Shown here: positions 352-62,843 of the stretch, piece after piece
How positions within the stretch are numbered: position 1 is the first letter of the stretch
Layout of the letters: each line of letters opens with the position of its first letter
Origin: Bacilli bacterium
Lineage (GTDB): Bacteria > Bacillota_I > Bacilli_A > RF39 > UBA660
Length of the DNA: 64,000 bases
Reading direction: 5' to 3'
NCBI GenBank assembly: GCA_028709545.1
Contig: JAQVWT010000001.1
Span: 658-64,657 of the forward strand
Notes under the pieces: generated by a model
The model's database searches: none
Told to the model about the DNA's origin: nothing
What the model saw: the letters and a program-made list of their open reading frames with translations, nothing else
Translations under genes and position numbers: made by a program

Positions 352-1068
352 ATGAGAAGATTAAAATATAAAAAAAGATGGCAATTTAAAGTTAATAGAA
401 TAATATTGATTTTAGTTATTTTGATAATTATGAATACTATATTTTTGTTTCTAATTTTTAGTAATAAATTAAGTGATTCCGTTATTGCTTCAACAAAAAA
501 AGAAATTGAAGAAATTACGATAAATATTGTTACAAAATATTTAACTAAAGAAAGATTAAAACAAATTGCTGCAGAAGATTTAATAATTATTATAAAAAAT
601 GATAAAGAAGAAATAACAGATGTTGATTTTAAGTTAGATAAAGTTTATGATGCGCTTATTGATATAAAAAGTGATATTGAAAAAGAGGTCTTAGATTTAA
701 AAAGAGGAATAATTCCTAGTAATACTATTTCTGTTGGGAATAACTTAATAATAAAAATCCCTTATTATGCTTATACTAATAATGCTCTTTTGATGAATTT
801 GGGGCCCAAAATGCATATTAAGATTAATTTACTTGAAAATATTATTGGTGATGTTTACACTAGAATCAGTAGTTATGGAATAAATACAGTTTTAATAAAT
901 TTATATATAAAATTTTATTTACTCGAAAGTTTTTTGTATCCATCAATTTCTGAAAAAATGGAATTTGAGTTTGAAGTATTAGTTGCAACAAAAGTTATCC
1001 AAGGAAAAATCCCTAGTTTTTATAATGGTGTTTTAGAAAGTAGTAGTTCATTATTTAATGTAAAGTAA
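352..1068 (+). CDS. hypothetical membrane-anchored protein
   Basis: ORF track; N-terminal TM (ILILVILIIMNTIFLFLIF); no motif recognised. Confidence 0.3.
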   Translation: MRRLKYKKRWQFKVNRIILILVILIIMNTIFLFLIFSNKLSDSVIASTKKEIEEITINIVTKYLTKERLKQIAAEDLIIIIKNDKEEITDVDFKLDKVYDALIDIKSDIEKEVLDLKRGIIPSNTISVGNNLIIKIPYYAYTNNALLMNLGPKMHIKINLLENIIGDVYTRISSYGINTVLINLYIKFYLLESFLYPSISEKMEFEFEVLVATKVIQGKIPSFYNGVLESSSSLFNVK

Positions 1069-5188: not shown

Positions 5189-5264
5189 GTCCTGTTAGCT
5201 CAGTAGGTAGAGCATTTGACTTTTAATCAAAGGGTCGCGCGTTCGAGTCGCGCACAGGACACCA
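5189..5264 (+). tRNA. tRNA-Lys(TTT); its 3' 50 nt form the prophage attL core
   Basis: Acceptor gtcctgt/acaggac; anticodon loop ctTTTaa; CCA; 3' part repeated at 35973..36026. Confidence 0.85.
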
Positions 5265-5403: not shown

Positions 5404-6456
5404 TCAATCTAATAAATCTATTGTTGCTATTAATTGTTCTTTCGTTTTACTATTATAAATACCATCTGTAATATCTCCACTAACAGAGTGCCCTAATATT
5501 AATTTGCGCGCAAGTCTATTAGCTCCCTTAGAATCCAAATCGGTGCTACAAGTGTGGCGACCGTCATGTGGAGTATGATCTAAATCTAGTTTAATCATTA
5601 ACTCTTTATATTTATCTAAATAATATCTATAATTCATTGCTCTTTTTGAATCATTCCATATTAGATATTCAGATTTGTTATCTTCACTAATTGTAATCCT
5701 ATTTTCAATTAAAGGTATTATTCTTTTATGTATAGGAATTATTCTATTAATACCAGCTTTTGTTTTTGATCCTGCTATTAAATATCTTTTATTTAAATTT
5801 ATTTTATCCAATTTGACATTTAATAATTCGCTAGGCCTTAATCCTGTATATATTAATATTATAACAGTATCCACATAATCCTGCTTTAAATTTTTCCATA
5901 ATATTTCTTTTTCCAATTTGCTGAAAGGCTTATGTTTTGATGATAACTCTTTTTTGCCTAATATCACAAATTCGGCATAATTCATTTTTATTGGTAATTC
6001 TTTTTGTTTAGCAATCTCAAATAATTGATTAAACATAATTTTAACATAGTTCTTAGACGTATAACTCTTATTAATCATATTATCTATTATATCTTGTATA
6101 TCAGATGTTCTGATATCAATAAAACGTTTATTATGCAATTTACTTGATTCATTATAAGCAGCATTATAATTTCCTATGCTAACAATATCTTCTCTTAATT
6201 TCATTTTTTTAAAATGATCGAAAACTCCGGTCAAAGTAATATCTAAGTTATTAAAATCATAAGGATCATTGAGATACATAATTAATGCTCTTTCGGCTAA
6301 CTGTCTTGTTTCCCAATACTTTCTTCCGTCCCATTCAATTATTTCCTTTTTTTGCTTTCCCTGATCATCCCAGTTGTTAGTTATAAAAGCAAAGAACGGG
6401 TTTCTTCTTTTACCAGATAATTTTGATGTTCCTCCAGCTCCGTTTGCTCTTTTCAT
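5404..6456 (-). CDS. int: phage integrase (tyrosine recombinase)
   Basis: TGLRPSEL (R), HDGRHTCST (HxxR), LGHS (H), TDGIY (Y): tyrosine-recombinase catalytic residues; sits next to attL. Confidence 0.85.
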   Translation of the reverse strand: MKRANGAGGTSKLSGKRRNPFFAFITNNWDDQGKQKKEIIEWDGRKYWETRQLAERALIMYLNDPYDFNNLDITLTGVFDHFKKMKLREDIVSIGNYNAAYNESSKLHNKRFIDIRTSDIQDIIDNMINKSYTSKNYVKIMFNQLFEIAKQKELPIKMNYAEFVILGKKELSSKHKPFSKLEKEILWKNLKQDYVDTVIILIYTGLRPSELLNVKLDKINLNKRYLIAGSKTKAGINRIIPIHKRIIPLIENRITISEDNKSEYLIWNDSKRAMNYRYYLDKYKELMIKLDLDHTPHDGRHTCSTDLDSKGANRLARKLILGHSVSGDITDGIYNSKTKEQLIATIDLLD

Positions 6457-17654: not shown

Positions 17655-18008
17655 ATGGCTAAAAAGAAAAGGTTATATCCTAAAAAATTATATGATCAAA
17701 TTAAAACCGATCTATTAAATCAATTAGAGTTAAATGGGGTGGCCGGCAAACATTATGAAAATATGATTGAAGATTATATGCAGTTTTGGCACACCAAAAT
17801 GTTGTTGCAAGAAGATATTAAATTACGAGGAGTAAATGTCGAATACAATAATGGCGGTGGTCAAAGCGGCTTTAAAAGAAATGATAGTGTTACCGATTTA
17901 GTTAAAGTTAATTCCCAAATGTTAAAAATATTATCAGAGTTAAATTTAAAACCATCTAAGGAAGGTGGTAAGGATGACCCCAAACCAACCGAAGACGATT
18001 ATTATTAA
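17655..18008 (+). CDS. terS: terminase small subunit (P27-family-like)
   Basis: ~117 aa, immediately upstream of terL; MAKKKRLYPKKLYD...NNGGGQSGFKRNDSV pattern. Confidence 0.5.
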   Translation: MAKKKRLYPKKLYDQIKTDLLNQLELNGVAGKHYENMIEDYMQFWHTKMLLQEDIKLRGVNVEYNNGGGQSGFKRNDSVTDLVKVNSQMLKILSELNLKPSKEGGKDDPKPTEDDYY

Positions 18009-19671
18009 AGAAGTAGAAGAATACTTAAATTGGTGTTATGAAAATCCAAATAAAATAAATAAAAAAAGATGGTTGCTGATAAAAAATATAGTTGAACCTA
18101 CATTAAGGAGAGCTGATATTTTTTTTGATGAAGAAAAATATTATAAATGTATTGATTATTGTGAAAAATGGTATTATCCATTATTTCCGTATCAAAAATT
18201 TATATATGCTTTTGTTTTTATGTTTAAAAATAAAAATTTTTCTTTTGAAAATAAGATCCCATTATTTCATAAATTTATAATTGAAATGGGTCGAGGAAAT
18301 GGTAAAGATGGATTTATCGCTCCTTTATGTAATTTTTTGCAAACTCCGATGTACGGAATTAAAAATTATAATATTGATATAGTAGCAACTAGTGAAAGTC
18401 AATCTAAAGACACTTTTTTGGTAGTTCATGATATGATGACTTCTAATATTAAAAAAATGAAAAAACTATTCTATATAAGTTTAGAGTTGATAATGAACTT
18501 GTTTACAAAATCGAGATTAAGATACAATACTTCAAACGCAAAAACTAAGGACGGCAAAAAAGTTGGTGCTATAGTATTTAACGAATATCACGCTTATGAA
18601 AATTACGAACAAATATCAGTTTTTGAAAGTGCGGGAGGTAAAGTGCCTCATTTTAGGATATTTATAATAACTACTCAAGGTAACGTTCGAGAAGGTCCGT
18701 TAGATGATGAATTAGAATATTGTGCCTCTATATTAAACGGTGAAGATAACAATCTTGGGGTTTTTCCTTTTTTGTGCGAATTAGATGATCTTAAAGAAGT
18801 TGATAACCATGAGATGTGGGTAAAGGCTAACCCTAGTATAGAATATATGCCTAATTTACTTGAAGTTATTAAACAACAATATCAAGAGCAAAAAGAAAGG
18901 CCGCAAAAAAGATTTGAGTTTTTGACAAAAAGAATGAATGTTCCGTCAAGAGATGAAACTACTTGTGTAGCAAGTTGGGAAAATATTCTTGCCACCAACC
19001 AAGAAATTCCTGATTTAAAAGGAATGAGTTGTTTAGGGGGAATTGACTATGCAAGTATGAATGATTTTTGTGCTGTTGGTTTATTATTTAAGCAAAACGG
19101 CAAACGTTACTGGATGCATCATTCTTTCATTTGCAGCAACAGTATTCATTTAAAAATGGTAAATAAAAAATTAAAAATTGATTTAGCTGTTGAAAAAGGC
19201 TTAGCAACAATGGTCAATACAAATAGTATTAACCCAGAAGTAGTTGTTAGTTGGTTTGTTCAGCAATCCAAAAAATATAATATTTTAAAAATTGCTTGCG
19301 ATGATTACCGATTTGCATTATTAAAAGAAGCTTTTGAAAAAGAAGGATTTTATGAAAAATGTAAAAAATACCCTAATGGAAGAATAATAGTTGTTAGGAG
19401 TGGACCTATTACTCATAATCGAGTAGCTACTATTATTGATGATATGTTTTATAATCAAACTTTAGTTTATGGTGATGATATGTTGATGCGCTGGTACACA
19501 AATAATACTGCTGTTAAAGTTGACGGTAAGGGAAATAAAACATATGAAAAAATAGAATATCAAACAAGAAAAAATGATGGTTTCATGGCATTAGTTCATG
19601 TTATGAGTATAGATAAAGAATTACCAACTATAAAAAGTAGTGGGAAATTAATGAGGCCTATAATAGGCTAG
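17974..19671 (+). CDS. terL: terminase large subunit
   Basis: ~565 aa; ATPase N-domain then nuclease domain; position between terS and portal; start set at the ATG with RBS GAAGGTGG (track GTG at 17965). Confidence 0.75.
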   Translation: MTPNQPKTIIIKEVEEYLNWCYENPNKINKKRWLLIKNIVEPTLRRADIFFDEEKYYKCIDYCEKWYYPLFPYQKFIYAFVFMFKNKNFSFENKIPLFHKFIIEMGRGNGKDGFIAPLCNFLQTPMYGIKNYNIDIVATSESQSKDTFLVVHDMMTSNIKKMKKLFYISLELIMNLFTKSRLRYNTSNAKTKDGKKVGAIVFNEYHAYENYEQISVFESAGGKVPHFRIFIITTQGNVREGPLDDELEYCASILNGEDNNLGVFPFLCELDDLKEVDNHEMWVKANPSIEYMPNLLEVIKQQYQEQKERPQKRFEFLTKRMNVPSRDETTCVASWENILATNQEIPDLKGMSCLGGIDYASMNDFCAVGLLFKQNGKRYWMHHSFICSNSIHLKMVNKKLKIDLAVEKGLATMVNTNSINPEVVVSWFVQQSKKYNILKIACDDYRFALLKEAFEKEGFYEKCKKYPNGRIIVVRSGPITHNRVATIIDDMFYNQTLVYGDDMLMRWYTNNTAVKVDGKGNKTYEKIEYQTRKNDGFMALVHVMSIDKELPTIKSSGKLMRPIIG

Positions 19672-25312: not shown

Positions 25313-27466
25313 ATGGCAAAGAAAAAGGGAATAGATTTAAGTTTTTCGATTGCTGAAAGTGAAGCTTTAACTTCAATAAGAAATTTAACATCGCAAGTCA
25401 CAACTATGAATAAAGAACTTAATTTAACCAATACTGTGCTAAGGAGTGATAGTGCTTCAATTGATACTTATAAAAACAAATTAGATGTTCTATCAAGAGA
25501 AAAAGAAGTGTTAAGTAATAGAGTTAGAGTTGCAAACGACACTTTAGAAAAAGCTAAATCTACTTATGGAGAAAACTCTACAGAAGTTCAAAAATGGCAA
25601 AATCGTTTACTTGATGCCCAAATTGCACAACAAAAAGTTGAAAATCAGATTGAAGATACAACTAAAGCAATTGATGAGTATGGGAAGGAAACTGTAGAAG
25701 CTTCTGAAAAAACATCAATATTTGGAGATGTTTTAAAAGCTAATTTAGCAAGTGATTTAATAATGAGCGGTGTTAAATCAATAGTTAATGGGGTTAAAGC
25801 TATTGGAAAAGTGGTTGGCGATGTTATTGGTGATAGCATAAAAGCGTATGCAGATTATGAACAATTAATTGGTGGCGTTGAAACTTTATTTAAAGATAGT
25901 GCTGATATAGTAAGCGCTAATGCTCAGCAAGCGTATAGAACAGCCGGAGTGTCTGCTAATAAGTATATGGAACAAGCAACAAGTTTTAGTGCTACATTAC
26001 TTCAAGGATTAGATGGTGATACTGCTCAAGCAGCTAAATATGCTGATTTAGCAATAACAGATATGGCAGATAATGCTAATAAAATGGGAACAGATATCTC
26101 TTCAATCCAAAATGCTTATCAAGGCTTTGCTAAAGACAACTATACAATGCTAGATAACCTTAAGCTTGGATATGGGGGAACTGCTGGGGAAATGGCTCGA
26201 CTGATTAATGATAGTGGAGTAATGGGCGATAGTTTTAAAGCTACAGCGCAAAATGTTAAAGAGATCCCTTTTAATAAAATGATTCAAGCAATTCATGATA
26301 CACAAGTTGAAATGGATATTACTGGAACAACAGCTAAAGAGGCAAGCGAAACAATTAGTGGAAGCCTTAATTCAGTTAAAGCTTCTTGGGAAAACGTTTT
26401 ATCTGCGTTAGCTAGTGGGAACGATGAGATGTTAACTGATTCCATTGACGGAATTTTAGAAGGAATAGGGAATTTGGTAACAAATGTGGTAGCAATATTG
26501 CCTAATATTATAGAAGGTTTAGGGAAACTTGTTGAGGGAGTAATTTCACAATTACCGTCATTAATTAAAAAAATATTACCTACATTATTAAATACTGTAA
26601 AATCATTGATTAACACTTTAATAACAATTCTTCCAGAACTGATACCAGTGGTAATTGAAATGATGAATTATCTAGTGAAAATAATACTTGAAAATTTACC
26701 ATTAATTCTCGAAGCTGGTATTCAGATTTTGTTATCTTTAATTGAAGGAATAGCAGATGCATTACCCGATTTAATACCCGCAATAGTAGAGGCTATATTA
26801 CTAATCGTGGATACATTGCTTAATAATATAGATTTAATAATAACAGCCGGAGTTGACATTTTAGTCGGATTAATAACAGGGATTATCTATGCAATTCCTA
26901 AACTAATTCAGTATGTTCCTCAAATCATAATTAAACTGGTTTCTGTTTTGATCAGTCAAGTACCTAGACTTTTAACGGTAGGGGTAGAAATAATTGCTAA
27001 AGTAATAGCTGGAATTGTTGGGAATATAGGAAAAATGTGGACAATTGGGAAAGATATGGTTGCAGGAATATGGGAAGGAATATCTAACTCATTCACTTGG
27101 ATTAAAAATAAAATTAGTGGTTGGATAGGAAATGTTACTAGTTTTATTAAAAAATTATTTGGAATAAAATCCCCATCTACTTTAATGAAAAATGAAGTTG
27201 GGCTAAACCTCGGATTAGGAGTAGCAGAAGGAATAACTGATTCAGTTGGGGCAGTTAATTCAGCTATGAGTGGACTGCAAGATTCTGTTATATCACAAGT
27301 TGAACCTTCAATTAATATTGGTGATGCAACTGCAGATGGTATTGAATTAGGAGTTGGCCGTCCGCTATACATTCAAATTGCGGAATTTAACAATAACAGA
27401 GAACAAGATATTGAAACCTTAGCTGAAGAACTCGCTTATTATTTAAATCAAAAGGAGTTGTCTTAA
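25313..27466 (+). CDS. tail tape measure protein
   Basis: 717 aa; coiled-coil N-part and long hydrophobic/Gly-rich repeats. Confidence 0.8.
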   Translation: MAKKKGIDLSFSIAESEALTSIRNLTSQVTTMNKELNLTNTVLRSDSASIDTYKNKLDVLSREKEVLSNRVRVANDTLEKAKSTYGENSTEVQKWQNRLLDAQIAQQKVENQIEDTTKAIDEYGKETVEASEKTSIFGDVLKANLASDLIMSGVKSIVNGVKAIGKVVGDVIGDSIKAYADYEQLIGGVETLFKDSADIVSANAQQAYRTAGVSANKYMEQATSFSATLLQGLDGDTAQAAKYADLAITDMADNANKMGTDISSIQNAYQGFAKDNYTMLDNLKLGYGGTAGEMARLINDSGVMGDSFKATAQNVKEIPFNKMIQAIHDTQVEMDITGTTAKEASETISGSLNSVKASWENVLSALASGNDEMLTDSIDGILEGIGNLVTNVVAILPNIIEGLGKLVEGVISQLPSLIKKILPTLLNTVKSLINTLITILPELIPVVIEMMNYLVKIILENLPLILEAGIQILLSLIEGIADALPDLIPAIVEAILLIVDTLLNNIDLIITAGVDILVGLITGIIYAIPKLIQYVPQIIIKLVSVLISQVPRLLTVGVEIIAKVIAGIVGNIGKMWTIGKDMVAGIWEGISNSFTWIKNKISGWIGNVTSFIKKLFGIKSPSTLMKNEVGLNLGLGVAEGITDSVGAVNSAMSGLQDSVISQVEPSINIGDATADGIELGVGRPLYIQIAEFNNNREQDIETLAEELAYYLNQKELS

Positions 27467-34151: not shown

Positions 34152-34859
34152 ATGATTAAAACATATTCACTAAAAAAAGACGGAAATATTAGTTTGTCGG
34201 CACACTTTAAAATAAGGGAATTTGCTTGTAAAGATGGATCAGATAAAATACTTATAGACACTGATTTAATTCCTATGATCGAGAAATTAAGACAAAAATT
34301 AGGAGCTAGTGCCTTTATAATTTATAGCGGTTATCGTACTCCGGCTCATGATAAAAAAGTTGGTGGAGGAGGATCTGGACCACATACGCAAGGTTATGCT
34401 GTAGACTGTTATCTTTTAGATAAAAAGAAAAAGAAAATAGATGCCCAAAAAATATGCGCAGTAGCAGGAGACTTGGGTTTTAAAGGGATTGGTTATATTA
34501 ATAAGGTAAATCTACATTTGGACACCAAACCTCGTCATTGGTGGGGTGATGAGACTGTAACCACTTCATACGGCATAGAAAAGATAAATGGTAGTAAAGA
34601 TTTTTATGAATATTTTAATATTAAAAAAGAATCAGATCCTATAGACGCTAAAAAATATATCCAAATTAAAGCAAAAGGTGGCGTATGGGCTTGGAGCGGT
34701 ATCGGTTTTAAGACTAAAAAACAAATGGTAATACCTAATGGATCTAAATGTGAATTAATTACTAAAAATGTTGGTAAAGCAAATGGATATAATTGGGATA
34801 AGATTATATATAAAAATAAAACCTTATATCTTGCAAATAATTGGAATAAATACTTATAA
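34152..34859 (+). CDS. endolysin, peptidase M15 (VanY / L-Ala-D-Glu peptidase-like)
   Basis: HFKIREFACKDG...SGYRTPAHDKKVGGGGSGPHTQGYAVD...LHLD: Zn-binding H..D...H pattern of M15 peptidases. Confidence 0.6.
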   Translation: MIKTYSLKKDGNISLSAHFKIREFACKDGSDKILIDTDLIPMIEKLRQKLGASAFIIYSGYRTPAHDKKVGGGGSGPHTQGYAVDCYLLDKKKKKIDAQKICAVAGDLGFKGIGYINKVNLHLDTKPRHWWGDETVTTSYGIEKINGSKDFYEYFNIKKESDPIDAKKYIQIKAKGGVWAWSGIGFKTKKQMVIPNGSKCELITKNVGKANGYNWDKIIYKNKTLYLANNWNKYL

Positions 34860-35937: not shown

Positions 35938-35972
35938 CAGCCCAGTTATATTCATAATCGAGGCTTATTATT

Positions 35973-36026
35973 TTTGACTTTTAATCAAAGGGTCGCGCGT
36001 TCGAGTCGCGCACAGGACACCATTTA
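35973..36026 (+). repeat. attR core (partial tRNA-Lys 3' copy)
   Basis: Identical to 5215..5268; no tRNA 5' half upstream. Confidence 0.85.
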
Positions 36027-37511: not shown

Positions 37512-38069
37512 TTACACTTCAGACTTAAGAAAATCTATACAAACAGCTGTAATAATAATCTGCTTAGATTTATCTTCTTGATCACAAGTAGTTAAAATTA
37601 AAATATTATTAAAAACATTTTTATTAATACTTATTTCCCCTGTCTTATTTTGTCTTTCTATATTAATAATTTTATAATTAAAAATATAGTTATTATAATT
37701 TATATATATTAAATCATCTTTTTCTAATAAATATAAATCTTTAAAAAAAGATACTTTACTATTACCCGAATGTGCTGCTAATATTAATAAACCTTTTTCT
37801 TGATTTGGCATTATAGATGGGTATAATATCTCAATTGATTTATTAACGTTATTATCTAGGCTATCATAAGTAGATAAACTTTTATCTAATGAAATTTTTG
37901 GGATTTTAATTTTAGCATAAAAAGTTTTGGTTTTAATTATTTGAGTATTTATTATTTCTTGGTGCTTATAAGTAAAAGCTTGTTTATTTTTAGCGATGTT
38001 GCTAGAAGTATTTAATAATAGTAAAAAAAAGATAATAAATATTTTATACTTTTCTTTTTTTCTTGTCAT
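37512..38069 (-). CDS. sortase-family transpeptidase
   Basis: N-terminal TM; LILAAHSG (His) and ILILTTCDQ (TLxTC catalytic Cys motif). Confidence 0.55.
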   Translation of the reverse strand: MTRKKEKYKIFIIFFLLLLNTSSNIAKNKQAFTYKHQEIINTQIIKTKTFYAKIKIPKISLDKSLSTYDSLDNNVNKSIEILYPSIMPNQEKGLLILAAHSGNSKVSFFKDLYLLEKDDLIYINYNNYIFNYKIINIERQNKTGEISINKNVFNNILILTTCDQEDKSKQIIITAVCIDFLKSEV

Positions 38070-39273
38070 AATAAATTATCTTCGGGATATCATATTCTTT
38101 AACCATATATTTAAAATCAAATACTTTACTATATGTTACTGGGACTTTAACTTGAATTAAATTATTATTTAAATCTTGATCAATAGTTATATCATTATCA
38201 TATTCCGTTATATCATTATCAATAGGTTGAATTACTTCTTTTTCATCTTTTATTATAAAATGATGGTTTAAATTATCTTGATTGATTTCAAAAAAAAGTT
38301 TATTTTGCGTGTTATCAAGAATATAATATTGTCCATAGTTAAGTGGCACACTATTTTCGCCAAAATTATCGTTCATAATAATTTCGTCAACTAAATTATT
38401 ATTATTATCAAAAATTAGATAACTAAGACTTTCATCATTATTAAAACCTTCAACTGTTATTTTTCCACCAGGTACGATGATATCTATTGTTTTTTCGTTA
38501 TTAGATAATTTACCTGGCGACATTGTATCTAAATATTCACTGACATATATAAGCGGATCCTGAGAATAAAGTTCATATTTTTTATATAATTTAACTTTAT
38601 AATTTCCTGGCCTGTTTGCAGTTATTATTAATTTGTTATCTTTAATCAGTAAGTCTAAACCCTCTGTTTTGGCAACTTCAAACTGATTAATAACATTATT
38701 TTTATCATCACTTTCTAAAGTTTCACCTATCTTTATTTCGTTTAAATCTTTTTCAAAGCTGGGAATCAAAAAATGATTATCAATAAGTGTTTCTAATTCC
38801 CTTAGTTCATTTTCATACTTAATAACTCTGTTTCCATTGTAAATATCAGTAAAATAGATATCCCAATCTAGGCGCAAGTGTCTCCAAATAAGAAGCTGAG
38901 TTATTATATACCACTTAATATCTGAGTGATCCTGTTCTTCGGCTTGATAATTGTATCCATAATAAGCATATAGTTTTACTTTTTCCCATTGTTCATTTGT
39001 AATTACTGTGGTTTGAGAAACATCATTTGTTCCAGCAGCTGGTTTATTATCAAGCTTCATACCCGGTTCTATGCTATAAACCCAGTGGTTATCGCTATTT
39101 CTTCTTAAAACATCACCATAAAAATGCCATTTTAAAACCCAAGGTGTTTGTTTTCGAAAATAGATACCGTCAATCCTTTCTTTAACTACTATAAGATCTT
39201 GGGTATTATTTGCATGGCCCACCTTAGGAATAAACAATATTCCAATAATTAATATAATTAATATTTTTTTCAT
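38044..39273 (-). CDS. secreted protein (signal peptide) upstream of and overlapping the sortase; TED-like Q motif
   Basis: Signal peptide MKKILIILIIGILFIPKVGHA; no Cys in the mature protein; ITQLLIW resembles the ΦQxΦΦW thioester-domain motif; no LPXTG. Confidence 0.35.
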   Translation of the reverse strand: MKKILIILIIGILFIPKVGHANNTQDLIVVKERIDGIYFRKQTPWVLKWHFYGDVLRRNSDNHWVYSIEPGMKLDNKPAAGTNDVSQTTVITNEQWEKVKLYAYYGYNYQAEEQDHSDIKWYIITQLLIWRHLRLDWDIYFTDIYNGNRVIKYENELRELETLIDNHFLIPSFEKDLNEIKIGETLESDDKNNVINQFEVAKTEGLDLLIKDNKLIITANRPGNYKVKLYKKYELYSQDPLIYVSEYLDTMSPGKLSNNEKTIDIIVPGGKITVEGFNNDESLSYLIFDNNNNLVDEIIMNDNFGENSVPLNYGQYYILDNTQNKLFFEINQDNLNHHFIIKDEKEVIQPIDNDITEYDNDITIDQDLNNNLIQVKVPVTYSKVFDFKYMVKEYDIPKIIYYDKKKRKV

Positions 39274-53093: not shown

Positions 53094-53909
53094 TTAACTT
53101 AACCAATTACAAGTTTCTTTAATTATCCAGCCACTATTTTTATAACGAGCTTTATAACATTTTCCTATGGCACCTAAACTTTCTTTATAACGTCCAATTT
53201 CGAGAGTAATATTATTATTTGCTTTTTTAAAATAATTAATACTAATCAAATACCCTTTTAAGTTTAATCCCCCCTCATCAGCGTAGCCATTATCTTTTAA
53301 TTCCTGATAATTAGCTTTAACAATAGTTTTATTATATTTTTCAGTATATTTCAGTAATAAATCTTGGTAATATTGGTCTAGTAATTCAAAGGTGTCTAAA
53401 TCAAGAGCTATATATTCAGGTTTTGAATAACTTTTAGCACTTAGTATATTGTCAATTAATTTTAGATATAAAGGATAAATATCGGAACTATTGATACAAG
53501 TTGTATTTATCTCTAAATTATAAAATCCCATGTTACTAGAATTATCTCCAATTAGGTTATGACATTTTATAACTTTATATCCTAAACCAAAGTATTCTTT
53601 ACTACCACCATCTTTATATCTAGTTACAAGTATTGCAAAAATTGGACTTTTACCACTTCTGCTTCGATAATAATCGATTGTTCCAAATAATATACTTAAT
53701 AAAAATAATGTGGCAAAACTTATAAGTAATATTTTATTAATTCTTTTATTTTTTTTACTTAACAAGAAGAATATTATTGTTAAAAAATAGCCAATTAAAC
53801 CAAATTCTATTAAAAATATGCCAGAGGTTTTTAATAAGTAGCTTATTAATAAACTAATAGAAGTTAAAACAAATATGATAATAGATATTATTTTATAATT
53901 ATTTTTCAT
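53094..53909 (-). CDS. hypothetical membrane protein
   Basis: Three N-terminal TM segments. Confidence 0.3.
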   Translation of the reverse strand: MKNNYKIISIIIFVLTSISLLISYLLKTSGIFLIEFGLIGYFLTIIFFLLSKKNKRINKILLISFATLFLLSILFGTIDYYRSRSGKSPIFAILVTRYKDGGSKEYFGLGYKVIKCHNLIGDNSSNMGFYNLEINTTCINSSDIYPLYLKLIDNILSAKSYSKPEYIALDLDTFELLDQYYQDLLLKYTEKYNKTIVKANYQELKDNGYADEGGLNLKGYLISINYFKKANNNITLEIGRYKESLGAIGKCYKARYKNSGWIIKETCNWLS

Positions 53910-54047: not shown

Positions 54048-54944
54048 ATGAGTAAGTCAATTATAAAAATAAAAAATTTAACAAAAGATTATGGAAATAA
54101 TAAGGGGGTCTTTGATATAAGTTTTGAAATTCCAAAAGGAGAAGTTTTTGGGTTTTTAGGACCCAATGGGGCAGGAAAGACAACTACTATCAGACATTTG
54201 ATGGGATTTATAAAACCTGATTATGGGGAATGTTATATCAATAATTGCGATTGCTTTACTTCATCAGATAAAATTCAAGAAACACTTGGGTATATTCCAG
54301 GAGAAGGGGCATTTATAAATGATATGACCGGAACAGAATTTATTGATTTTATGGCTAAATATAGAGGTTTGAAAAATTTAAATAAGGCTGATGAATTAAT
54401 TAAACGATTTGAATTAGATTCAAATACTAAAATTAAAAAAATGTCAAAAGGAATGAAACAAAAATTAGGAATAATTGTTGCTTTTATGCATGACCCAGAT
54501 ATATTGATTTTAGATGAACCTACTAGCGGGCTTGATCCATTGATGCAAAATATCTTTATTAAGATGATTAATGAAGAAAAGAAAAAAGGTAAAACTATTT
54601 TAATATCTTCCCATATTTTTGAAGAAATAGAAAGAACTGCTGACAAAGTTGCAATAATAAAGAACGGTAGAATTGTTGCAATAAACTCAATAAAAAATTT
54701 AAAAAAGAATCAATCTAGAAAGTTTACAATCACTTTTAATAATCAAAAAGATATAGAGAATATTCAAAAAGCAAAGATTGAAATAACAGATATCATTGAT
54801 AACAAAGTAACTTTTCTGATAAGAAATAATATAAAAGAATTTATAAAGATTTTAAATAAATATGACATTATTGATATTGATGAAGAAAAGCAAAGTTTAG
54901 AGGATATTTTCATGAACTTTTATGGAGGTGAAAATAATGATTAA
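54048..54944 (+). CDS. ABC transporter ATP-binding protein
   Basis: GPNGAGKTT, MSKGMKQKLGI, LILDEPTSGLD. Confidence 0.7.
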   Translation: MSKSIIKIKNLTKDYGNNKGVFDISFEIPKGEVFGFLGPNGAGKTTTIRHLMGFIKPDYGECYINNCDCFTSSDKIQETLGYIPGEGAFINDMTGTEFIDFMAKYRGLKNLNKADELIKRFELDSNTKIKKMSKGMKQKLGIIVAFMHDPDILILDEPTSGLDPLMQNIFIKMINEEKKKGKTILISSHIFEEIERTADKVAIIKNGRIVAINSIKNLKKNQSRKFTITFNNQKDIENIQKAKIEITDIIDNKVTFLIRNNIKEFIKILNKYDIIDIDEEKQSLEDIFMNFYGGENND

Positions 54945-55737
54945 CTTACCACTATTTAAACAAAGTATAAAATCAAATTATAAGCTTGTCTTGATATTTT
55001 TAGCCGTATTAACACTGTATATAGCAATTATAGTTAGTATGTATGAGCCAGAAGCACTAAAAATGATGGAAAGTTTTGCAGAAACAATGCCAGAATTAAT
55101 GGCTATGTTTGGAATGAATATGGAAGTGGCAACATTAACGGGATTCTTAATTACTTATTTATATGGTTTTTTATTTTTAATAATGCCATTAATAGTTACT
55201 ATAATTGTTGCAAATAGATTAATAGCAGCACATGTTGATAAAGGATCAATGGCATGTTTATTATCATCACCTAATAAAAGAAAAACAATTATTTTGACCC
55301 AAATGCAAGTTTTAAACTTAATAATTTTTGCTATTATTGCTTACAGCACAATAATTACAATAATTTCATCGGAAATAGTATTTCCTGGTGAAATAGAAAT
55401 CGTTAAACTAATGTTAATAAATTTAAGTTTATTAACATTCCATATTTTTCTAGGAAGCATTTGCTTTATTGCATCCACTATAGCTAATGAAACAAAATAT
55501 TCTTTAATGTTTGGTGCTGGAATTCCTTTGTTATCTTTTCTAATCCAAATGCTAGCTAATATGGAAGGAAAATTAGATATTTTAAAATATTTTACTTTAT
55601 TTTCATTTTTTAGGCCTCTTGCAATTTTAAGTGGAGAAAAATATCCTTATATATTATTAATAATAATGATAGTTATTACGATAATTATATATACTGTATC
55701 AATTAAAATTTTTAAAAATAAAGATTTATCTATTTAA
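54922..55737 (+). CDS. ABC-2 type permease
   Basis: Six TM segments; overlaps the ATPase stop. Confidence 0.55.
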   Translation: MEVKIMINLPLFKQSIKSNYKLVLIFLAVLTLYIAIIVSMYEPEALKMMESFAETMPELMAMFGMNMEVATLTGFLITYLYGFLFLIMPLIVTIIVANRLIAAHVDKGSMACLLSSPNKRKTIILTQMQVLNLIIFAIIAYSTIITIISSEIVFPGEIEIVKLMLINLSLLTFHIFLGSICFIASTIANETKYSLMFGAGIPLLSFLIQMLANMEGKLDILKYFTLFSFFRPLAILSGEKYPYILLIIMIVITIIIYTVSIKIFKNKDLSI

Positions 55738-55789
55738 AATTTAGAATATTATAAATATTATTGTTATAATTAAGAATGTCGGAGGATAT

Positions 55790-56728
55790 ATGAAAAATGT
55801 AATAGAAGTAAAAAAATTAAATAAGAAATATAAAAATTTACAAGCAGTTCAAGATTTAAGTTTTGAAGTAAAAGAAAAAGAAATTTTAGGTTTATTAGGA
55901 CCAAATGGAAGTGGAAAAACGACAACTATTAACTGTCTGTTATCTTTACTTAATTTTGATAGTGGTAGTATAAACATTTTAGGTAAAGAAATGACCCCTG
56001 ATGCTTATGATATCAAATCCAAAATAGGAGTAGTGTTTCAAGATGTCGCAGTTTTTGAAGAATTAACAGTAATAGAAAATATCACTTATTTTTGTGGTTT
56101 ATATATTAAAGATAAAAAAATTAGAAATAGATATGTTGAAGAAGCTATCGATTTAGTAGGGTTAAATGATTTTAAAGATTTTTATCCCAAAAAATTAAGT
56201 GGTGGGCTTTTAAGAAGATTAAACATTGCCTGTGGTATAGCTCATAAACCATCCATCATTTTTTTAGATGAACCTACAGTAGCAGTAGATCCTCAAAGTC
56301 GTAATAATATTCTTGAAGGGATAAAAAAATTAAATAAAGAAGGCGCAACAATTATTTATACAACACATTATATGGAAGAGGTAGAAATATTATGCGACCG
56401 AATTATTATATTAGATAAAGGCATAATCATTGCTAGCGGAACTTCAAAAGAGTTAAAAGAATTAACCAGTATTGAAGAAAAAGTAACTATTGAAATCGAT
56501 GATTTAAAGCAAGAAATCATTGAAGAATTTAAAAAACTTAAGAATGTAGAAAATGTTTCATATGACAGTAAATTATTATATATTACTTATAAAAAAGGAA
56601 AAGACAATTTAATTAATTTAATTGAGTTTATGAAAACAAAAAAAATAAAATATAATAAATTCTTTTCTGAGTTGCCAACATTAAATGACGTGTTTCTAGA
56701 ACTAACTGGTAAAGAATTGAGGGATTAG
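55790..56728 (+). CDS. ABC transporter ATP-binding protein
   Basis: GPNGSGKTT, LSGGLLRRLNIA, IFLDEPTVAVD. Confidence 0.7.
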   Translation: MKNVIEVKKLNKKYKNLQAVQDLSFEVKEKEILGLLGPNGSGKTTTINCLLSLLNFDSGSINILGKEMTPDAYDIKSKIGVVFQDVAVFEELTVIENITYFCGLYIKDKKIRNRYVEEAIDLVGLNDFKDFYPKKLSGGLLRRLNIACGIAHKPSIIFLDEPTVAVDPQSRNNILEGIKKLNKEGATIIYTTHYMEEVEILCDRIIILDKGIIIASGTSKELKELTSIEEKVTIEIDDLKQEIIEEFKKLKNVENVSYDSKLLYITYKKGKDNLINLIEFMKTKKIKYNKFFSELPTLNDVFLELTGKELRD

Positions 56729-56730
56729 AA

Positions 56731-57852
56731 ATGTTTTTTCATATATTTATTAATAAACTAAAAATACTTTTAAAAAATAAATCGATGATTTTTTGGACAT
56801 TATTTTTTCCTTTAGCACTTGCAACTTTTTTTTATTTAGCTTTTTCTAATATTGATTCTAACGAAAAATTTACAGAAATTGATATTGCGATAGTCGATAA
56901 TGAACAGTTCCAAAATAATGTTGATTTCAAGCATCTAATGGCAAGTTTATCAAATGAAGAAAATATATTTAATACCGATTATGTTAATATAGATGTAGCA
57001 AAAAAATTACTGGAAGATAATAGAATTAAGGGTTATATATTAGTAGAAGATGAAATAAATGTATATATCAAAGAAAATGGAATATCTCAAACAATAATTA
57101 AAAGTGTAATTGACAACTTTTATCAAATTAACAGTGCTGTTAACCATATATTTATAGAAAAACAAGAAATTACAAATATAATTTTAGCGGATTTAAATCA
57201 GAATTATTTTAATGATATAAGTAACGACAAAATAAGTTCTACGGTTACCTATTTTTATACTTTAATAGGAATGGTTTGTTTATATGGGGGATTCTTTGGA
57301 GTTAATGCCTTAAACGAAAGTGAATCTAATTTAAGCAAAAGGGCGGCTCGATTAAATGTTTCACCAATTCATAAATTGAAATTTTTACTTATTTCTTTAT
57401 TAGTTGCATTTATAATTCAGTATATGGAAACATTAATTTTACTAAGCTATGTGGTATATATTTTAAAAGTTGATTTTGGTAATCAAATTTTGCCAATTAT
57501 CATTTTAACGGCAAACGGAACAATAGCTGGTATAAGTTTCGGAGCTATAGTTGGATTATCTAATAAAGGAAGTGAAAATACTAAAACAGGAATTTTAGTA
57601 TCAGTAACTATGTTATTATCATTTTTAGCAGGAATGATGATTGGCGATATTAAATATTTAATTGAAAAAAATATTCCTTTATTGGCTAAAATTAATCCGG
57701 TAAACATGATTACTGATGCTCTTTATTCTTTATATTATTATAATAATTTAGACAAATATTTTTCCAACTTATTTAGTTTGATAATTTTTTCCTTCATAAT
57801 GATAACTGTTTCTTATATTATTTTAAGGAGGAAAAAGTATGATAGTATTTAG
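56731..57852 (+). CDS. ABC-2 family permease
   Basis: N-terminal TM, large loop, five C-terminal TMs. Confidence 0.5.
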   Translation: MFFHIFINKLKILLKNKSMIFWTLFFPLALATFFYLAFSNIDSNEKFTEIDIAIVDNEQFQNNVDFKHLMASLSNEENIFNTDYVNIDVAKKLLEDNRIKGYILVEDEINVYIKENGISQTIIKSVIDNFYQINSAVNHIFIEKQEITNIILADLNQNYFNDISNDKISSTVTYFYTLIGMVCLYGGFFGVNALNESESNLSKRAARLNVSPIHKLKFLLISLLVAFIIQYMETLILLSYVVYILKVDFGNQILPIIILTANGTIAGISFGAIVGLSNKGSENTKTGILVSVTMLLSFLAGMMIGDIKYLIEKNIPLLAKINPVNMITDALYSLYYYNNLDKYFSNLFSLIIFSFIMITVSYIILRRKKYDSI

Positions 57853-58978
57853 TAATTATCTTAAAATTTTAAAACAATACACTGCTTTTGTTGTTTTGTA
57901 TGTAGTGATTTTTACGATATTTTCAATTATTTTTACGATATACAGTAATGATAATCCCACATTTGCAGTCCAAAAACCAAATATTGCGATTATAAATAAT
58001 GAAGATACTAAGTTAGTCAAATCGTTTCTAGATTATATAAAAACCACTTCAAATATAGTGGAAATGGATAGTGAAGATTTAAAAGATGCTTTATTTTATC
58101 GTAAAGTTGATTTAATTTTAACTTTTCCACCTAATTTTACTAATGACTTTCTAAATAATGATAATCCAGAAATTAATATTCAAAGAGTTCCAGATTCTTC
58201 AAGATCTATTTATGCAATTATGTATTTAAATCGCTATTTAAACATTGCAAGTTTATATAACTCAAATAATGTTACTATGGATAAGTTAATAGAATATATA
58301 GAATTAGATTTAAAGCTTGAGACAAATATTGTATTTAATAATAAAAATACAACTTTGTTATCAAGTGCTAATTATTTTTATAATTTTTCTAGTTATTCTA
58401 TTTTAGCAATATCAGTATCGGTTATAGGTATGATGATGAGTTCATTTAAACTTAAAACTATTCAAAGAAGAAATATGATTAGTCCAATGTCTTATAGTAA
58501 ACAAAATAATAGTCTGTTTTTAGGGAATTTATTAGTAACAATGGGTGTGTGGTTATTATTTACGATTTTAGGTATATGCTTTTTTAGGCAAGCTATATTC
58601 AGTGCAAATGGAGTTTTATTCATGATTAATTCATTAGTCTTTAGTATAACTGCTTCATCTATGGGATTTTTTATTGGAAATGTTATTAACAATAAAGAAG
58701 CAATAAGTTCAATAGTAAATGTAGTAGCTTTGGGATCCAGTTTTATCTGTGGGGCTTTTGTACCACAAGAAATATTAGGAGAATCAGTATTAAAGATTGC
58801 TAAATTTTTTCCAACTTACTGGTTTGTTAAAGGAAATAATGAAATTGTAATTTTAAGTAAACTAAGTTTAGATAAAATGGAACCAATATGTATCAATATT
58901 ATAATGACGTTATTATTTGCCTTATTATTTTTTATGCTAAATAAAATAATTTTAAAATTTAGATTAAAAGAAAATTAA
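57839..58978 (+). CDS. ABC-2 family permease (second)
   Basis: Same architecture; start overlaps the previous stop. Confidence 0.5.
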   Translation: MIVFSNYLKILKQYTAFVVLYVVIFTIFSIIFTIYSNDNPTFAVQKPNIAIINNEDTKLVKSFLDYIKTTSNIVEMDSEDLKDALFYRKVDLILTFPPNFTNDFLNNDNPEINIQRVPDSSRSIYAIMYLNRYLNIASLYNSNNVTMDKLIEYIELDLKLETNIVFNNKNTTLLSSANYFYNFSSYSILAISVSVIGMMMSSFKLKTIQRRNMISPMSYSKQNNSLFLGNLLVTMGVWLLFTILGICFFRQAIFSANGVLFMINSLVFSITASSMGFFIGNVINNKEAISSIVNVVALGSSFICGAFVPQEILGESVLKIAKFFPTYWFVKGNNEIVILSKLSLDKMEPICINIIMTLLFALLFFMLNKIILKFRLKEN

Positions 58979-59037
58979 AAAAGATAAAAAATTGTGTTTT
59001 TTATCTTTTTGTTTTGCTTTTTTTGTAGAATTTTTAT

Positions 59038-59877
59038 TTATGTAAGACGGATTACAGTTAAAGTTGCACCTGCGCCACCTTGAAGAACGGCTGTACCAAT
59101 TACACCAAAAAGTTGTAGACTAAGCTCATCGCCAGCATCAAGAGTAGTTATCGTAGTTGCTGTAAAGCCTGTTACACTAGCTATAGGTGAGAACACAGAA
59201 CCAGCAAGTGTTGAACCATTAAGTGTGACCCGAGAAGATAATAATAAAGCAAGCGTTATATTGATTTGATAAGTTACTAAATATGTTCCATCTTCGGGAA
59301 CAGTGAACACTGTATTTCCTCCACTTGCGGTAAAACCATCAAGACTTTGATTGTCGGATAGTGCTATATCGGTACCACCTACTACTACAAGAATGGTGTC
59401 TTCATCAGTATTTTGCGCATTCATTGAGTTTTCAGTAACAACTAACCCATCAGCTCCAGTAGCTCCAGTTGGTCCAGTTGGCCCAATTTCACCATCAGCT
59501 CCAGTAGCTCCGGTAGGTCCAGTTGGCCCAATTTCACCGTCAGCTCCAGTAGGTCCAGTCGGTCCGGTAGGTCCAGTCGGTCCAATTTCACCATCAGCTC
59601 CAGTAGCCCCGGTAGGTCCAGTTGGCCCAATTTCACCGTCAGCTCCAGTAGGTCCAGTCGGTCCGGTAGGTCCAGTCGGTCCAATTTCACCATCAGCTCC
59701 AGTAGCCCCGGTAGGTCCAGTTGGTCCAGTCGGTCCGGTAGGTCCAGTCGGTCCAGTTGGTCCGGTAGGTCCAGTCGCGCCCGTCGGTCCAGTTACACAA
59801 CAGACATATGTAATTGGAAAAGGTTTTTTAAGTGGATTATCTTTGATATAATCAAAATTATTTTGACATGTTTTCAT
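59038..59877 (-). CDS. collagen-like (GPT)n repeat protein with BclA-type C-terminal β-domain
   Basis: Long G-P-T / G-A-T / G-E-I triplet run; C-terminus ...[11 protein letters not shown] resembles the BclA C-terminal domain; start set at MKTCQNN with RBS AAGGAG (track start 59940). Confidence 0.5.
59440..59790. repeat. GC-rich tandem nonamer/27-mer DNA repeats encoding (GPT)n
   Basis: Repeated ggtccagttggcccaatttcaccatcagctccagtagc units; explains spurious antisense ORFs 59351..59851 and 59442..59693. Confidence 0.8.
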
Positions 59878-59958
59878 GTTTTCACACTCCTTTCTTAATA
59901 TTTTATGATTTATATTTATAAAACAGTAGTTGAAAACCACTAATTTTCATACTTTAGC

Positions 59959-60574
59959 TTGTTAAATTTACTAAAATGTCATAAAATAACTTTTGTGAGC
60001 GGTGATATATTGAATAATTTAGATAAAGCTAAAATAGAATCATCAAAATTTATTGATAACCGACATTTATATGTTGGAAATATTATTAAACGAGTTTTTA
60101 AACCAGAAGAATATAATTATTTATGTGAAGTCGGAGCAGGAGAAATGCAGCTAGCTAAATTTTTAGCAGAATCATATGAAAAAATAGATGCTTACGAGGT
60201 TTATCCTCAAAAAAATGAGCAAGTAAATAATTTAAATATATATGGCAGGTTTTCAAAATTAGTTAAAGTTGATAAATATAACTTATTACTTTCGATATGT
60301 CCTTATTATTATGATTATTATGATTATGATGAGTTAGATCCTGAAGATGAGACCGTAAATTTGCTTTATGATATTATTAATATATGTAATAGAAGGAAAT
60401 ATTGATTTATTCTTAGTATTATCTAATACCGATGGAGTGTTGCGCTTCTTTAAGGATATTTATAATAATCCGAAGTATAAGGATTTTCTTTATGATGAGA
60501 TTGTTTTATATTATTTAAATATTTGTGGAAAAAAAGTATCAAGTAGTCATAATTTAATATTAAAAAAGAAATAA
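59959..60574 (+). pseudogene. SAM-dependent methyltransferase-like gene split over two overlapping frames
   Basis: LCEVGAGEMQLAKFLAESYEKIDAYE is a class I SAM MTase motif I; two overlapping ORFs (59959..60405 and 60368..60574) suggest a frameshift or error. Confidence 0.3.
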
Positions 60575-61607: not shown

Positions 61608-61790
61608 TCATTTTATAAGTGTCTTATTTTCTTTCTTTATTACTTTATAGCCTTTTTCTAATATTTCAGTAAATTCTCTTGGTATCTTTTTTTGCACTTC
61701 TAAGATGTATTCTTCATTTATAACATATAATGCTTCTGCCATCGCTCCAACTATACATGCGTTAGTATCAGTGTCTCCACCATAACTCAA
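61608..61790 (-). pseudogene. C-terminal remnant of an ADP-ribosylglycohydrolase-family gene
   Basis: GGDTDTNACIVGAMAEA is the C-terminal signature of that family; only ~60 aa present, no upstream continuation. Confidence 0.4.
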
Positions 61791-61906: not shown

Positions 61907-62383
61907 TTAACTTTTTTGATATTCATTATAGACATCAAAACTGTTATTAATTTGTTTTTTAATAGCATTTTTAAAACTATCTTCTGCTGATTTTCCAAAT
62001 CCACTAAAAGTTTCTTCACCAATTATAGTAAATGGAACTCCGGTAACTTGTTTTCCCATAATTTCCGCAAAATCAATTAATATATCAGCGTTATCTTGAT
62101 TATACCAAACCTCTAATGAATAAATGTTAATATCTTTACTATATTCCTCACTAAGATTTTCTAAAAAAACAAATTCATCTTCACAATGGGGACAACCATT
62201 TCCATAAAAGAAGTAAATATTTACTTTGTCGTCCATTAATTTAATATCAGATAATTTAGAGTCTCTATTAATTATATTTTGGTCTGTTTTAGAATTATTA
62301 TTATTTTTAACTACTGATACTACAACAACAAATATAATTAATAAGATTGTTAGTACAACAAAGTACTTTTTTTTATTTTTCAT
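61907..62383 (-). CDS. membrane-anchored thioredoxin-like protein (CPHC)
   Basis: N-terminal TM; FYGNGCPHCEDEF CxxC motif; TGVPFTIIG thioredoxin-fold cis-Pro region. Confidence 0.55.
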   Translation of the reverse strand: MKNKKKYFVVLTILLIIFVVVVSVVKNNNNSKTDQNIINRDSKLSDIKLMDDKVNIYFFYGNGCPHCEDEFVFLENLSEEYSKDINIYSLEVWYNQDNADILIDFAEIMGKQVTGVPFTIIGEETFSGFGKSAEDSFKNAIKKQINNSFDVYNEYQKS

Positions 62384-62402
62384 TATTACTCCTTTAGTTA
62401 AA

Positions 62403-62843
62403 TTATTTTAGCAAAACATATTGAGTCAGCCAATCGTCAAAACCCTCTACTGATTCATAATAGGGGATATCTTCATTTTTATTAGGATCTAAATGGGTAA
62501 TAATTTTACCTTTTTGATAAATAGCTACAGTGGGAAAATATTTAATGTGTTTTGCTAGATTAGTATCATCTATATTCCCAAATGTAATTTTATATAAACC
62601 TATTTCATTTGTGTTTACGTAGTCAGTTAAAACTTCATTAAAATCATATGATGTAGTACATAGGGGTTGATAAATAAAAATTATAAATGAAGATTCATTT
62701 TTTTCTAAATCCTTTAATTTGTCATTATCTATTTCTGTTAATGAATCATTTTCATAATATTCATCATCTAAATAAAAAGTTTTGACTTTATCGCATCCTA
62801 AAATAAGTAAGCAAGTAATTATAATTAATATAACTTTTTTCAT
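62403..62843 (-). CDS. thioredoxin-fold lipoprotein (CxxS)
   Basis: Lipobox LILGC; QPLCTTS (single Cys); YFPTVAIYQKGK thioredoxin-like. Confidence 0.4.
   Translation of the reverse strand: MKKVILIIITCLLILGCDKVKTFYLDDEYYENDSLTEIDNDKLKDLEKNESSFIIFIYQPLCTTSYDFNEVLTDYVNTNEIGLYKITFGNIDDTNLAKHIKYFPTVAIYQKGKIITHLDPNKNEDIPYYESVEGFDDWLTQYVLLK

Follow-up and report, generated by a model that had tools for sequence, protein, structure and literature searches.

The locus considered here raises the question of what kind of collagen-like fibre is encoded by an uncultured Bacilli lineage, where on the cell or spore such a fibre would be placed, and how it differs between strains. The DNA analysed, referred to as the window, is a 64,000-nucleotide (nt) stretch of contig JAQVWT010000001.1 (assembly GCA_028709545.1, Bacilli bacterium, lineage RF39; UBA660). 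Its collagen-like protein gene occupies the minus strand at 59038..59877, a span that takes in the stop codon, and according to the open reading frame (ORF) list and its translation encodes 279 amino acids (aa) from an ATG at 59877. The product comprises an N-terminal segment, a collagen-like stalk, and a C-terminal globular domain, or knob. An earlier note on this DNA had read it as a BclA-like glycoprotein of the spore surface or S-layer. Judged by sequence and modelled fold, the protein is a member of the BclA_C family of collagen-like proteins, with the C-terminal domain, the Gly-X-Y run, and the jelly-roll fold of that family all present, and it probably forms a fibre on the endospore surface.

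The family assignment is carried by the C-terminal domain, which consists of 133 aa and is rich in Thr, Val, and Gly. Residues 152-278 match the Pfam hidden Markov model BclA_C (PF18573) at E 4.9e-42. The score of 143.3 bits exceeds the cutoff of 38, and the aligned part of the profile runs from position 1 to 127 out of 128, so the BclA-like family proposed in the earlier note is borne out over the full length of the domain. The AlphaFold2 model of residues 140-279, built on a 34-sequence alignment, is all-beta, with a predicted local distance difference test score (pLDDT) of 88.3 and a predicted template-modelling score (pTM) of 0.83. In a Foldseek comparison with solved structures, the best match is Bacillus anthracis BclA (3tyj/1wck), with a template-modelling (TM) score of 0.78 and E 6e-9. 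The next matches are the F-BclA tip domain (9h38) and ExsFA/BxpB, and then C1q/TNF-family proteins. A BclA/C1q-like fold, on which the earlier note had staked its reading, is thus what the model returns. The statement that the protein "closely resembles" BclA is too strong, as the knob and BclA share only ~18% identity when aligned by structure and the exosporium leader is absent; identity to L-BclA-type and Clostridia relatives is 46-69%. A phmmer search reaches 1wck solely via the collagen part; with the family profile as query, the globular domain of 1wck is matched at E 2e-7. At 50% identity the family comprises 170 clusters with E<=1e-30 and 617 with E<=1e-10, and the gene alone is therefore a routine annotation in a family of hundreds of clusters. 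Exact look-ups of the 279-aa product, and of a 300-aa version of it, found no match in the protein collection, and a scan of genome contigs returned only two distant loci. By analogy with the family, the protein would form a homotrimer that is nucleated by the C-terminal knob and carries a collagen triple helix.

The stalk spans residues 30-146 as an unbroken run of 39 Gly-X-Y triplets (22 GPT, 6 GAD, 5 GAT, 5 GEI, and 1 GLV) and matches Pfam Collagen (PF01391) with E 5e-18. At such E values, the Collagen and BclA_C matches are both well outside what chance would give. The count and the all-beta model agree with the GPT/GAT/GEI collagen run and β-rich C-terminal domain described by eye. The collagen region contains 11 D/E and no K/R residues, and 27 Thr at the Y position, all possible sites of O-glycosylation judging by the sequence. 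No glycosyltransferase or rhamnose genes are found among the neighbours of the gene in the window, which gives glycosylation no local support; a GT2+TPR glycosyltransferase gene lies directly 3' of the collagen-like gene in three relatives (L029, L042, and L002). Published fibres provide a calibration of length, as 125 residues correspond to 39 nm and 173 residues to 52 nm (PMC11362473). The 117 residues of the stalk, at 0.29 nm each, would accordingly be expected to form a triple helix of ~33-36 nm.

At the DNA level, the repeat is GC-rich as had been noticed, with 59% GC versus 28% for the window. The GC content at third codon positions (GC3) of the repeat is 0.21, near that of host genes (mean 0.16). 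The GC-richness arises from codon positions 1-2 of Gly, Pro, Thr, and Ala, and is not a foreign signature. The near-identical 27-bp units of the earlier note have to be replaced by a different unit, since Tandem Repeats Finder reports 3.3 copies of a 99-bp period at 91% match, along with sub-periods of 45 and 54 bp. Self-match is 0.88 at a lag of 99 and 0.75 at lags of 45/54, and the value of 0.63 at 27 is ordinary for multiples of 9 (0.60-0.67 for the others). The basic period is the 9-bp codon triplet, and protein units of 15 aa and 18 aa alternate. Exact repetition reaches at most 116 bp, in two overlapping copies (59510-59625 and 59609-59724) that are offset by 99 bp. The antisense ORFs within the gene are stop-free readings of this repeat and are spurious, as had been supposed.

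The question of attachment turns on the N-terminal segment. It is hydrophilic and holds the only three cysteines of the protein, of which C26-C27 form a double cysteine (CC) that lies two residues ahead of the first Gly-X-Y. Pfam scan and pattern search of the protein gave no signal peptide, LPXTG motif, SLH domain, or cell-wall-binding domain. Likewise, the exosporium leader (LVGPTLPPIPP-like, TIGR03720) gave no match at E<=1 and no motif by pattern search; the control protein P0017, which carries LVGPTFLPVPTG, matched the model with only 9.9 bits. An exact 48-nt N-terminal DNA probe found no match in the JGI metagenomes. At least three N-terminal routes are described for BclA-family fibres. 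The exosporium leader docks on ExsFA/BxpB in BclA and F-Anchor (PMC12357932, PMC11362473). F-BclA uses a hook peptide (PMC12357932), and L-BclA, which is leaderless, uses a short double-cysteine connector at the tip of the L-type appendage (PMC11362473).

The relatives of the window protein fall along similar lines. Among 80 metagenomic loci with relatives of its C-terminal domain, 57 include the N-terminus. In 34 of the 57 (15 distinct sequences) a CC lies <=15 residues from the collagen start, mostly among 5-11 cysteines. The leader LIGPTFPPVPTG occurs in 11 of the 57 (5 distinct sequences), all 11 of them with zero cysteine, and the remainder have other N-terminal domains. A second survey covered the 150 best representatives at 50% identity, 89 of them with a scorable N-terminus, and placed 16 in the CC class; 14 more were otherwise Cys-rich. 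Since leader-bearing relatives are cysteine-free and CC relatives are leaderless, the two kinds of N-terminus look like two different means of attachment, either of which can take the place of the other, and it is to the cysteine class that the window protein belongs. The leaderless CC N-terminus of L-BclA appears from these surveys to be a common alternative to the Bacillus leader, found in Firmicutes of gut and fermentation origin as well as in a clade of uncultured Bacilli, and it may offer a simple sequence rule for predicting how a fibre is attached.

The ATG of the gene is also the start called in ten sister contigs from other samples (L010-L019), and the 300-aa ORF that was called mechanically from a GTG at 59940 is a mere upstream extension through the ribosome-binding site. 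The hairpin that follows the stop codon has a folding energy of -9.5 kcal/mol (z = -4.6 versus shuffles) and is common to the convergent ABC-2 permease gene. No sigma-70-type promoter placed to drive the collagen-like gene was found. The 9-mer CATAAAATA upstream of the ATG fits the mother-cell sigma-K/E-type -10 pattern CATAnnnTA, with an AC 18 nt further upstream. The divergent neighbour gene has an identical 9-mer at 59980-59988 (+), likewise exactly 30 nt before the start codon, which weakly suggests a shared promoter of the sigma-K/E kind. For comparison, CATACACTA stands at -54 in the promoter region of l-bclA, which is sporulation-specific.

The window encodes the sporulation protein YunB at 352..1068 (Pfam 58.8 bits versus a cutoff of 25; TIGR02832 E 2e-27), which is intact (238 aa) across related Bacilli metagenome-assembled genomes (MAGs) down to 41% identity. 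Because YunB is conserved at full length across the clade, the lineage is taken to have at least retained sporulation genes. A weak YutH/CotS-like kinase is also present in the window. Of the two locations suggested in the earlier note, the spore surface is plausible, given the conserved YunB and the lack of a signal peptide, and the S-layer is without support, as the protein has no SLH domain, wall-binding domain, signal peptide, or LPXTG motif. The lack of an export signal is consistent with a fibre put together within the mother cell, the way BclA is.

Taken together, the product is most likely a BclA_C-family collagen-like fibre that decorates the endospore surface and is anchored there by disulfides, a reading to which a probability of roughly 0.58 is given. 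Synthesis would take place in the mother cell late in sporulation. Three chains would trimerise via the C-terminal knob and then zip into the triple helix. Cys26-Cys27, perhaps also C4, would tether the fibre by disulfides to a Cys-rich outer spore structure, which could be a basal layer or an appendage, and the knob would face outward as a contact or adhesion surface. Clostridium spores offer a model for the first kind of partner, as they have disulfide-cross-linked Cys-rich lattices (CsxA) in complexes with BclA-like proteins, and Clostridia have no ExsF homologue and no known mode of attachment for their BclA-like proteins (PMC7333573). Because of these CsxA-type lattices, a direct disulfide link to a Cys-rich layer is as plausible as placement at an appendage tip.

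Several observations weigh against a disulfide-anchored spore fibre. The N-terminal segment has 3 Cys, whereas most CC-class relatives have 5-11, no homologue was detected when the N-terminal 41 aa were used as query, and the CC beside the collagen helix could be a mere inter-chain cystine knot and not an anchor. The CATAAAATA motif is short and not enriched, with 63 copies in the window versus 84 expected, being common in AT-rich DNA, and a promoter at this position would leave a leader of only ~14 nt. No Cys-rich basal-layer or glycosyltransferase gene adjoins the collagen-like gene, and no Pfam match to Enas (PF13157), DUF4183, or CotZ was obtained among window ORFs of >=100 aa outside the prophage. 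The assemblies are presumably short-read, and to that extent the exact triplet count is uncertain, as in principle are the joins through the repeat. Other partner searches gave similar results. A tblastn search of the whole 64-kb window with Ena3A and ExsL yielded nothing better than E 0.7, and phmmer found neither in 88 related loci, both being single-sequence searches of limited sensitivity. Nothing of the kind of the ExsFA/BxpB adaptor or the ExsY/CotY basal layer appeared in the window scans. The view of the genome is that of the 64-kb window, and partner genes may lie elsewhere.

Variation between strains provides the most notable feature of the locus, a sharp mosaic junction in the collagen repeat. 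Across the 3.4 kb that lie beyond the start codon, the ten sister contigs are 99.7% identical to the window. The first 1263/1263 aligned nt beyond the start are identical, as are 87/87 N-terminal coding nt. The sister contigs then diverge from the window at nt 111 of the gene, in codon 37 (position 59767), within the first collagen triplets. In the one complete sister copy (L012, 305 aa), the collagen region differs from that of the window and includes one irregular GPSGGETG stretch. The C-terminal domains of the two are only 61% identical (81/133 aa), with a non-synonymous divergence (dN) of 0.30 and a synonymous divergence (dS) of 1.26, which is saturated. Identity between the two alleles is 55% in loops versus 65% in strands, a weak trend that is not taken as evidence. 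The downstream flank of the sister copy (L012 1-284) is unrelated to that of the window (54048-58978) and is without the two ABC-2 operons; the sole resemblance there is a 46-nt patch that is 83% identical to window 53574-53619. As this flank is unrelated, the allele difference extends beyond the gene. A second MAG of the same strain (L001) is identical to the window in the C-terminal domain and downstream DNA (1502/1502 nt) and in N-terminal residues 7-29, up to its contig end, and has 36 triplets in another arrangement versus 39 in the window. The promoter and the N-terminal anchor are therefore invariant between strains, the stalk and knob differ as a block, and the number of triplets also varies.

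The window knob shares more identity with Clostridia homologues (up to 69%) than with the sister allele (61%), and within the species the stalk-plus-knob cassettes diverge from one another as much as from homologues of a different bacterial class. A recent transfer of the knob out of high-GC Clostridia was considered and rejected, as the GC3 values of the two alleles are 0.19 and 0.12 against a host mean of 0.16 and maximum of 0.20; the Clostridia homologues of the knob have 51-54% GC. The switch from 100% to ~61% identity within the first collagen triplets fits swapping of the tip with the anchor kept. A further proposal is tentative and stands at the level of conjecture: the collagen repeat may serve as a recombination joint for modular tip-swapping of a spore-surface adhesin under balancing or diversifying selection, comparable to that on Pasteuria collagen-like proteins, the fibre maybe being disulfide-bound to an undescribed layer or appendage. 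For metagenome assembly the locus also carries a warning. The instability and assembly fragility foreseen in the earlier note are evident in the 39 versus 36 triplets of two MAGs from one strain, in the 9 of 10 sister contigs that end inside the repeat, and in the N gaps that Clostridium symbiosum scaffolds carry there. Contig breaks and scaffold gaps can be expected at such genes, and repeat counts can differ within a strain.

Other explanations of the protein have to be weighed against a disulfide-anchored spore fibre. One of them, held to be unlikely, makes the protein the tip fibrillum ("ruffle") of an endospore appendage, in which the CC peptide docks on and disulfide-bonds an Ena-type pilus ring whose Ena is encoded elsewhere. 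Its three-part layout is that of L-BclA, with the CC beside the helix, no leader, and 46% identity of the knobs; F-BclA and BclA are the top structural matches of the knob, and the F-ENA paper names another leaderless CC collagen-like protein as a candidate S-ENA ruffle (PMC12357932). However, l-bclA is linked to ena3A/exsL, and none of Enas, DUF4183, or CotZ turned up in the window scans and none in 88 loci. The N-terminal segment is also unlike the L-BclA and Ena connectors beyond the CC. The F-ENA hook is made up of a hydrophobic pair and a single further residue ahead of P and F/H (IILPH / IIQPF) (PMC12357932), and the nearest string in the window protein, LKKPF (residues 16-20), is a loose fit in which the second position is not hydrophobic. 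The protein could instead be a canonical nap protein of the BclA or Clostridioides difficile BclA1-3 type, held non-covalently on the basal layer via an adaptor, with cysteines that only knot the chains. The Pfam family and fold are the same, the triplets are GPT-rich, and the stalk of ~117 residues is near the 125 of BclA in NVH 0075-95. Cystine knots beside collagen helices are, moreover, well established, for example in type III collagen. The absent exosporium leader, the ~18% identity of the knob to BclA, and the lack of adjacent rhamnose or glycosyltransferase genes nevertheless make this identity improbable.

A protein unrelated to spores, either a phage tail-fibre remnant or a vegetative or secreted adhesin of the Scl/Lcl type, is very unlikely. 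The full-length protein does match many PHROG tail-fibre families (best E 9e-38) as well as SclA/SclB/Lcl models, and a 30.7-kb prophage lies in the same window. However, the PHROG matches all fall in the collagen repeat, the knob alone reaches only 25 bits to a PHROG of unknown function, and the knob-family profile found no relative among 2.9 million viral contigs. The prophage ends 23 kb from the collagen-like gene. The NCBIfam SclA/SclB/Lcl models score 65-81 bits, far under cutoffs of 325-500 and in the collagen part only, and neither signal peptide nor LPXTG is present. Judging from these sequence features, a secreted, wall-anchored, S-layer, or phage protein is unlikely. The chance that the gene is an assembly chimera misjoined through the repeat, or an inactive relic with a collapsed count and an accidental frame, is put at the same very low level. 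The 116-bp exact repeat is at least as long as the k-mers commonly used by short-read assemblers, most of the sister contigs break in the repeat, and both flanking genes carry 1-nt frameshifts. On the other hand, the second MAG assembly joins the same N-terminal residues 7-29 to the same knob and downstream DNA, the junction between the N-terminal part and the allele-specific collagen spans only ~25 nt, within a single read, and an independent, 96%-identical fragment of the C-terminal domain is present in another data set. The frame is open through all 39 triplets, and the ribosome-binding site, start, stop, and terminator are intact.

Table 1. Features of the collagen-like gene and its immediate flanks in the window.
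Feature	Position	Strand	Basis and remarks
Complete collagen-like gene	59038..59877	-	ORF, Pfam Collagen + BclA_C; stop codon 59038-59040
N-terminal segment, residues 1-29, putative anchor	59791..59877	-	All three cysteines C4, C26, C27
Collagen-like region, residues 30-146, 39 Gly-X-Y triplets	59440..59790	-	PF01391
Higher-order DNA repeat core, 99-bp unit (45 + 54 bp)	59510..59724	-	Tandem Repeats Finder, lag analysis
C-terminal globular domain, residues 147-279, BclA_C / C1q-TNF-like jelly roll, presumed trimeric distal knob	59041..59439	-	PF18573, AlphaFold2, Foldseek
Mosaic junction, first nt departing from the sister-contig allele	59767	-	Gene nt 111, codon 37
Ribosome-binding site AAGGAG, 9 nt 5' of the ATG	59887..59892	-	Read from the sequence
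Possible -10 element CATAAAATA (late mother-cell sigma-K/E-type)	59899..59907	-	30 nt upstream of the ATG; inference
Probable bidirectional terminator, A/T-rich 13-14-bp hairpin + T-run	58979..59009	.	RNA fold
Spurious antisense ORF of 166 aa (repeat read as PVGPVG...)	59351..59851	+	Wholly within the gene
Spurious ORF, shifted frame	59442..59693	-	Wholly within the gene, stop-free repeat

The surroundings of the gene contain several further features. Two ABC-2 transporter operons lie on its convergent side. On the divergent side, the nearest gene has no assigned function and in its intact form encodes 187 aa; beyond it come a choloylglycine hydrolase and two thioredoxin-like proteins. The 187-aa neighbour has a faint methyltransferase-like match of 17 bits. 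Compared with the sister contigs, the window has an extra A at 60388, through which this neighbour falls into ORFs of 148 aa and 68 aa, and lacks a T at 61409, which disrupts the 318-aa choloylglycine hydrolase. Both ORFs, and the hydrolase truncated to 255 aa, recur in the second MAG, and the two indels are either real strain pseudogenes or a shared assembly error. At 61608-61790 (-), the translation of a 60-aa ORF (MSYGGDTDTNACIVGAMAEALY...) resembles, by eye, the C-terminus of an ADP-ribosylglycohydrolase and may be a further gene remnant. The two adjacent thioredoxin-like proteins (61907-62843, -), located 2-3 kb from the gene, have hydrophobic N-termini, and one of them gives a weak PedC-like Pfam match; to link them to disulfide formation on the spore surface would be pure speculation. 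Further away, at 37512-39273 (-), a sortase gene overlaps that of a 409-aa thioester domain (TED) protein, and the two are likely a covalent-adhesin pair of the vegetative cell surface. The prophage of ~30.7 kb (~5265-35945) sits in a transfer RNA (tRNA) cluster between tRNA-Lys(ttt) copies at 5189-5264 and 35945-36022. It encodes an integrase (5404-6456), large terminase (17965-19671), tape measure protein (25313-27466), and endolysin (34152-34859), and also carries portal, major head protein, and tail proteins.

Among known spore fibres, the window protein is not a canonical BclA by its sequence, since the leader is lacking; its architecture is L-BclA-like, but linkage to Ena genes is not seen in the visible 64 kb. 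The L-BclA tip fibrillum of Bacillus paranthracis NVH 0075-95, which has been characterised by experiment, and its orthologue BCE_A0005 are likewise leaderless, with a CC beside the collagen run (GPLGCCGISGKTGPTG, C13C14). GPT/GAT triplets and a BclA_C knob are common to both, the knobs being 46% identical, and both C-termini read G-A-x-L-T-[VI]-I-R (GAALTIIRVS in BCE_A0005). In contrast, the N-terminal segment of L-BclA is ~14 aa long versus 29 aa in the window protein, with no similarity beyond the CC, and its stalk has ~173-195 residues versus 117. The hosts also differ, a member of the Bacillus cereus group in one case and an uncultured 28%-GC Bacilli lineage in the other. The l-bclA gene is co-transcribed with ena3A and lies beside exsL (PMC11362473). 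In the L-ENA cluster on plasmid pBc10987 of B. cereus ATCC 10987, BCE_A0004 has CotZ and Enas domains, BCE_A0005 collagen and BclA_C domains and the N-terminus MANRLNFTGPLGCCGISGKTGPTG, and BCE_A0006 an Enas domain, so that the L-BclA orthologue stands between ExsL and Ena3A; the window has no such genes.

BclA of B. anthracis (1wck, 3tyj) has the same C-terminal Pfam family, and in both proteins the collagen region is GPT-rich and length-polymorphic. It differs in having an exosporium leader and a knob of only ~18% identity, and no glycosylation genes adjoin the window gene. The closest C-terminal relatives, with 50-69% identity, are the CC-type proteins of gut and fermentation Clostridia (for example the C. 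symbiosum locus L004, and contigs L029 and L042), which have a Cys-rich N-terminus and a CC by the collagen run (for example RVCCQGPTG; C. symbiosum has RRCCPGPGRVCCQGPTG), and whose assemblies likewise break in the repeat. They differ in having 5-11 Cys versus 3 in the window protein, and several have GT2+TPR directly downstream; as they are known from sequence alone, they give no function. Elsewhere in the family, two S-adenosylmethionine-dependent methyltransferase genes lie upstream of the collagen-like gene on Priestia megaterium pBM500 (L009 1679-4432). Tandem pairs of collagen-like genes with a common N-terminal domain and different C-terminal domains occur at L002 6036-10243 and L042 2910-5393. 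In the Caproiciproducens pair, one C-terminal domain is BclA_C-type and the other is unrelated and ExsJ-like by eye. Such pairs likewise point to a shuffling of N- and C-terminal modules by way of the collagen repeat.

The exosporium proteins BclA1-3 of the anaerobe C. difficile are collagen-like, without the Bacillus leader, and show highly variable collagen regions and frequent pseudogenisation (PMC13188886). They are likened to the window protein by description. As general background, their N-terminal domains are larger, and bclA3 is linked to a glycosyltransferase. The Pcl7 proteins of Pasteuria ramosa are spore-surface collagen-like proteins with a BclA-like distal knob and exceptional allelic diversity within the species (PMC7743900). 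In Pcl7, polymorphisms within the gene are tied to host attachment, whereas the whole stalk-plus-knob block differs in the window species. Precedents exist for every aspect of the locus, in the length polymorphism of C. difficile, the diversity of Pasteuria Pcl7, and the leaderless CC proteins that are candidate ruffles.

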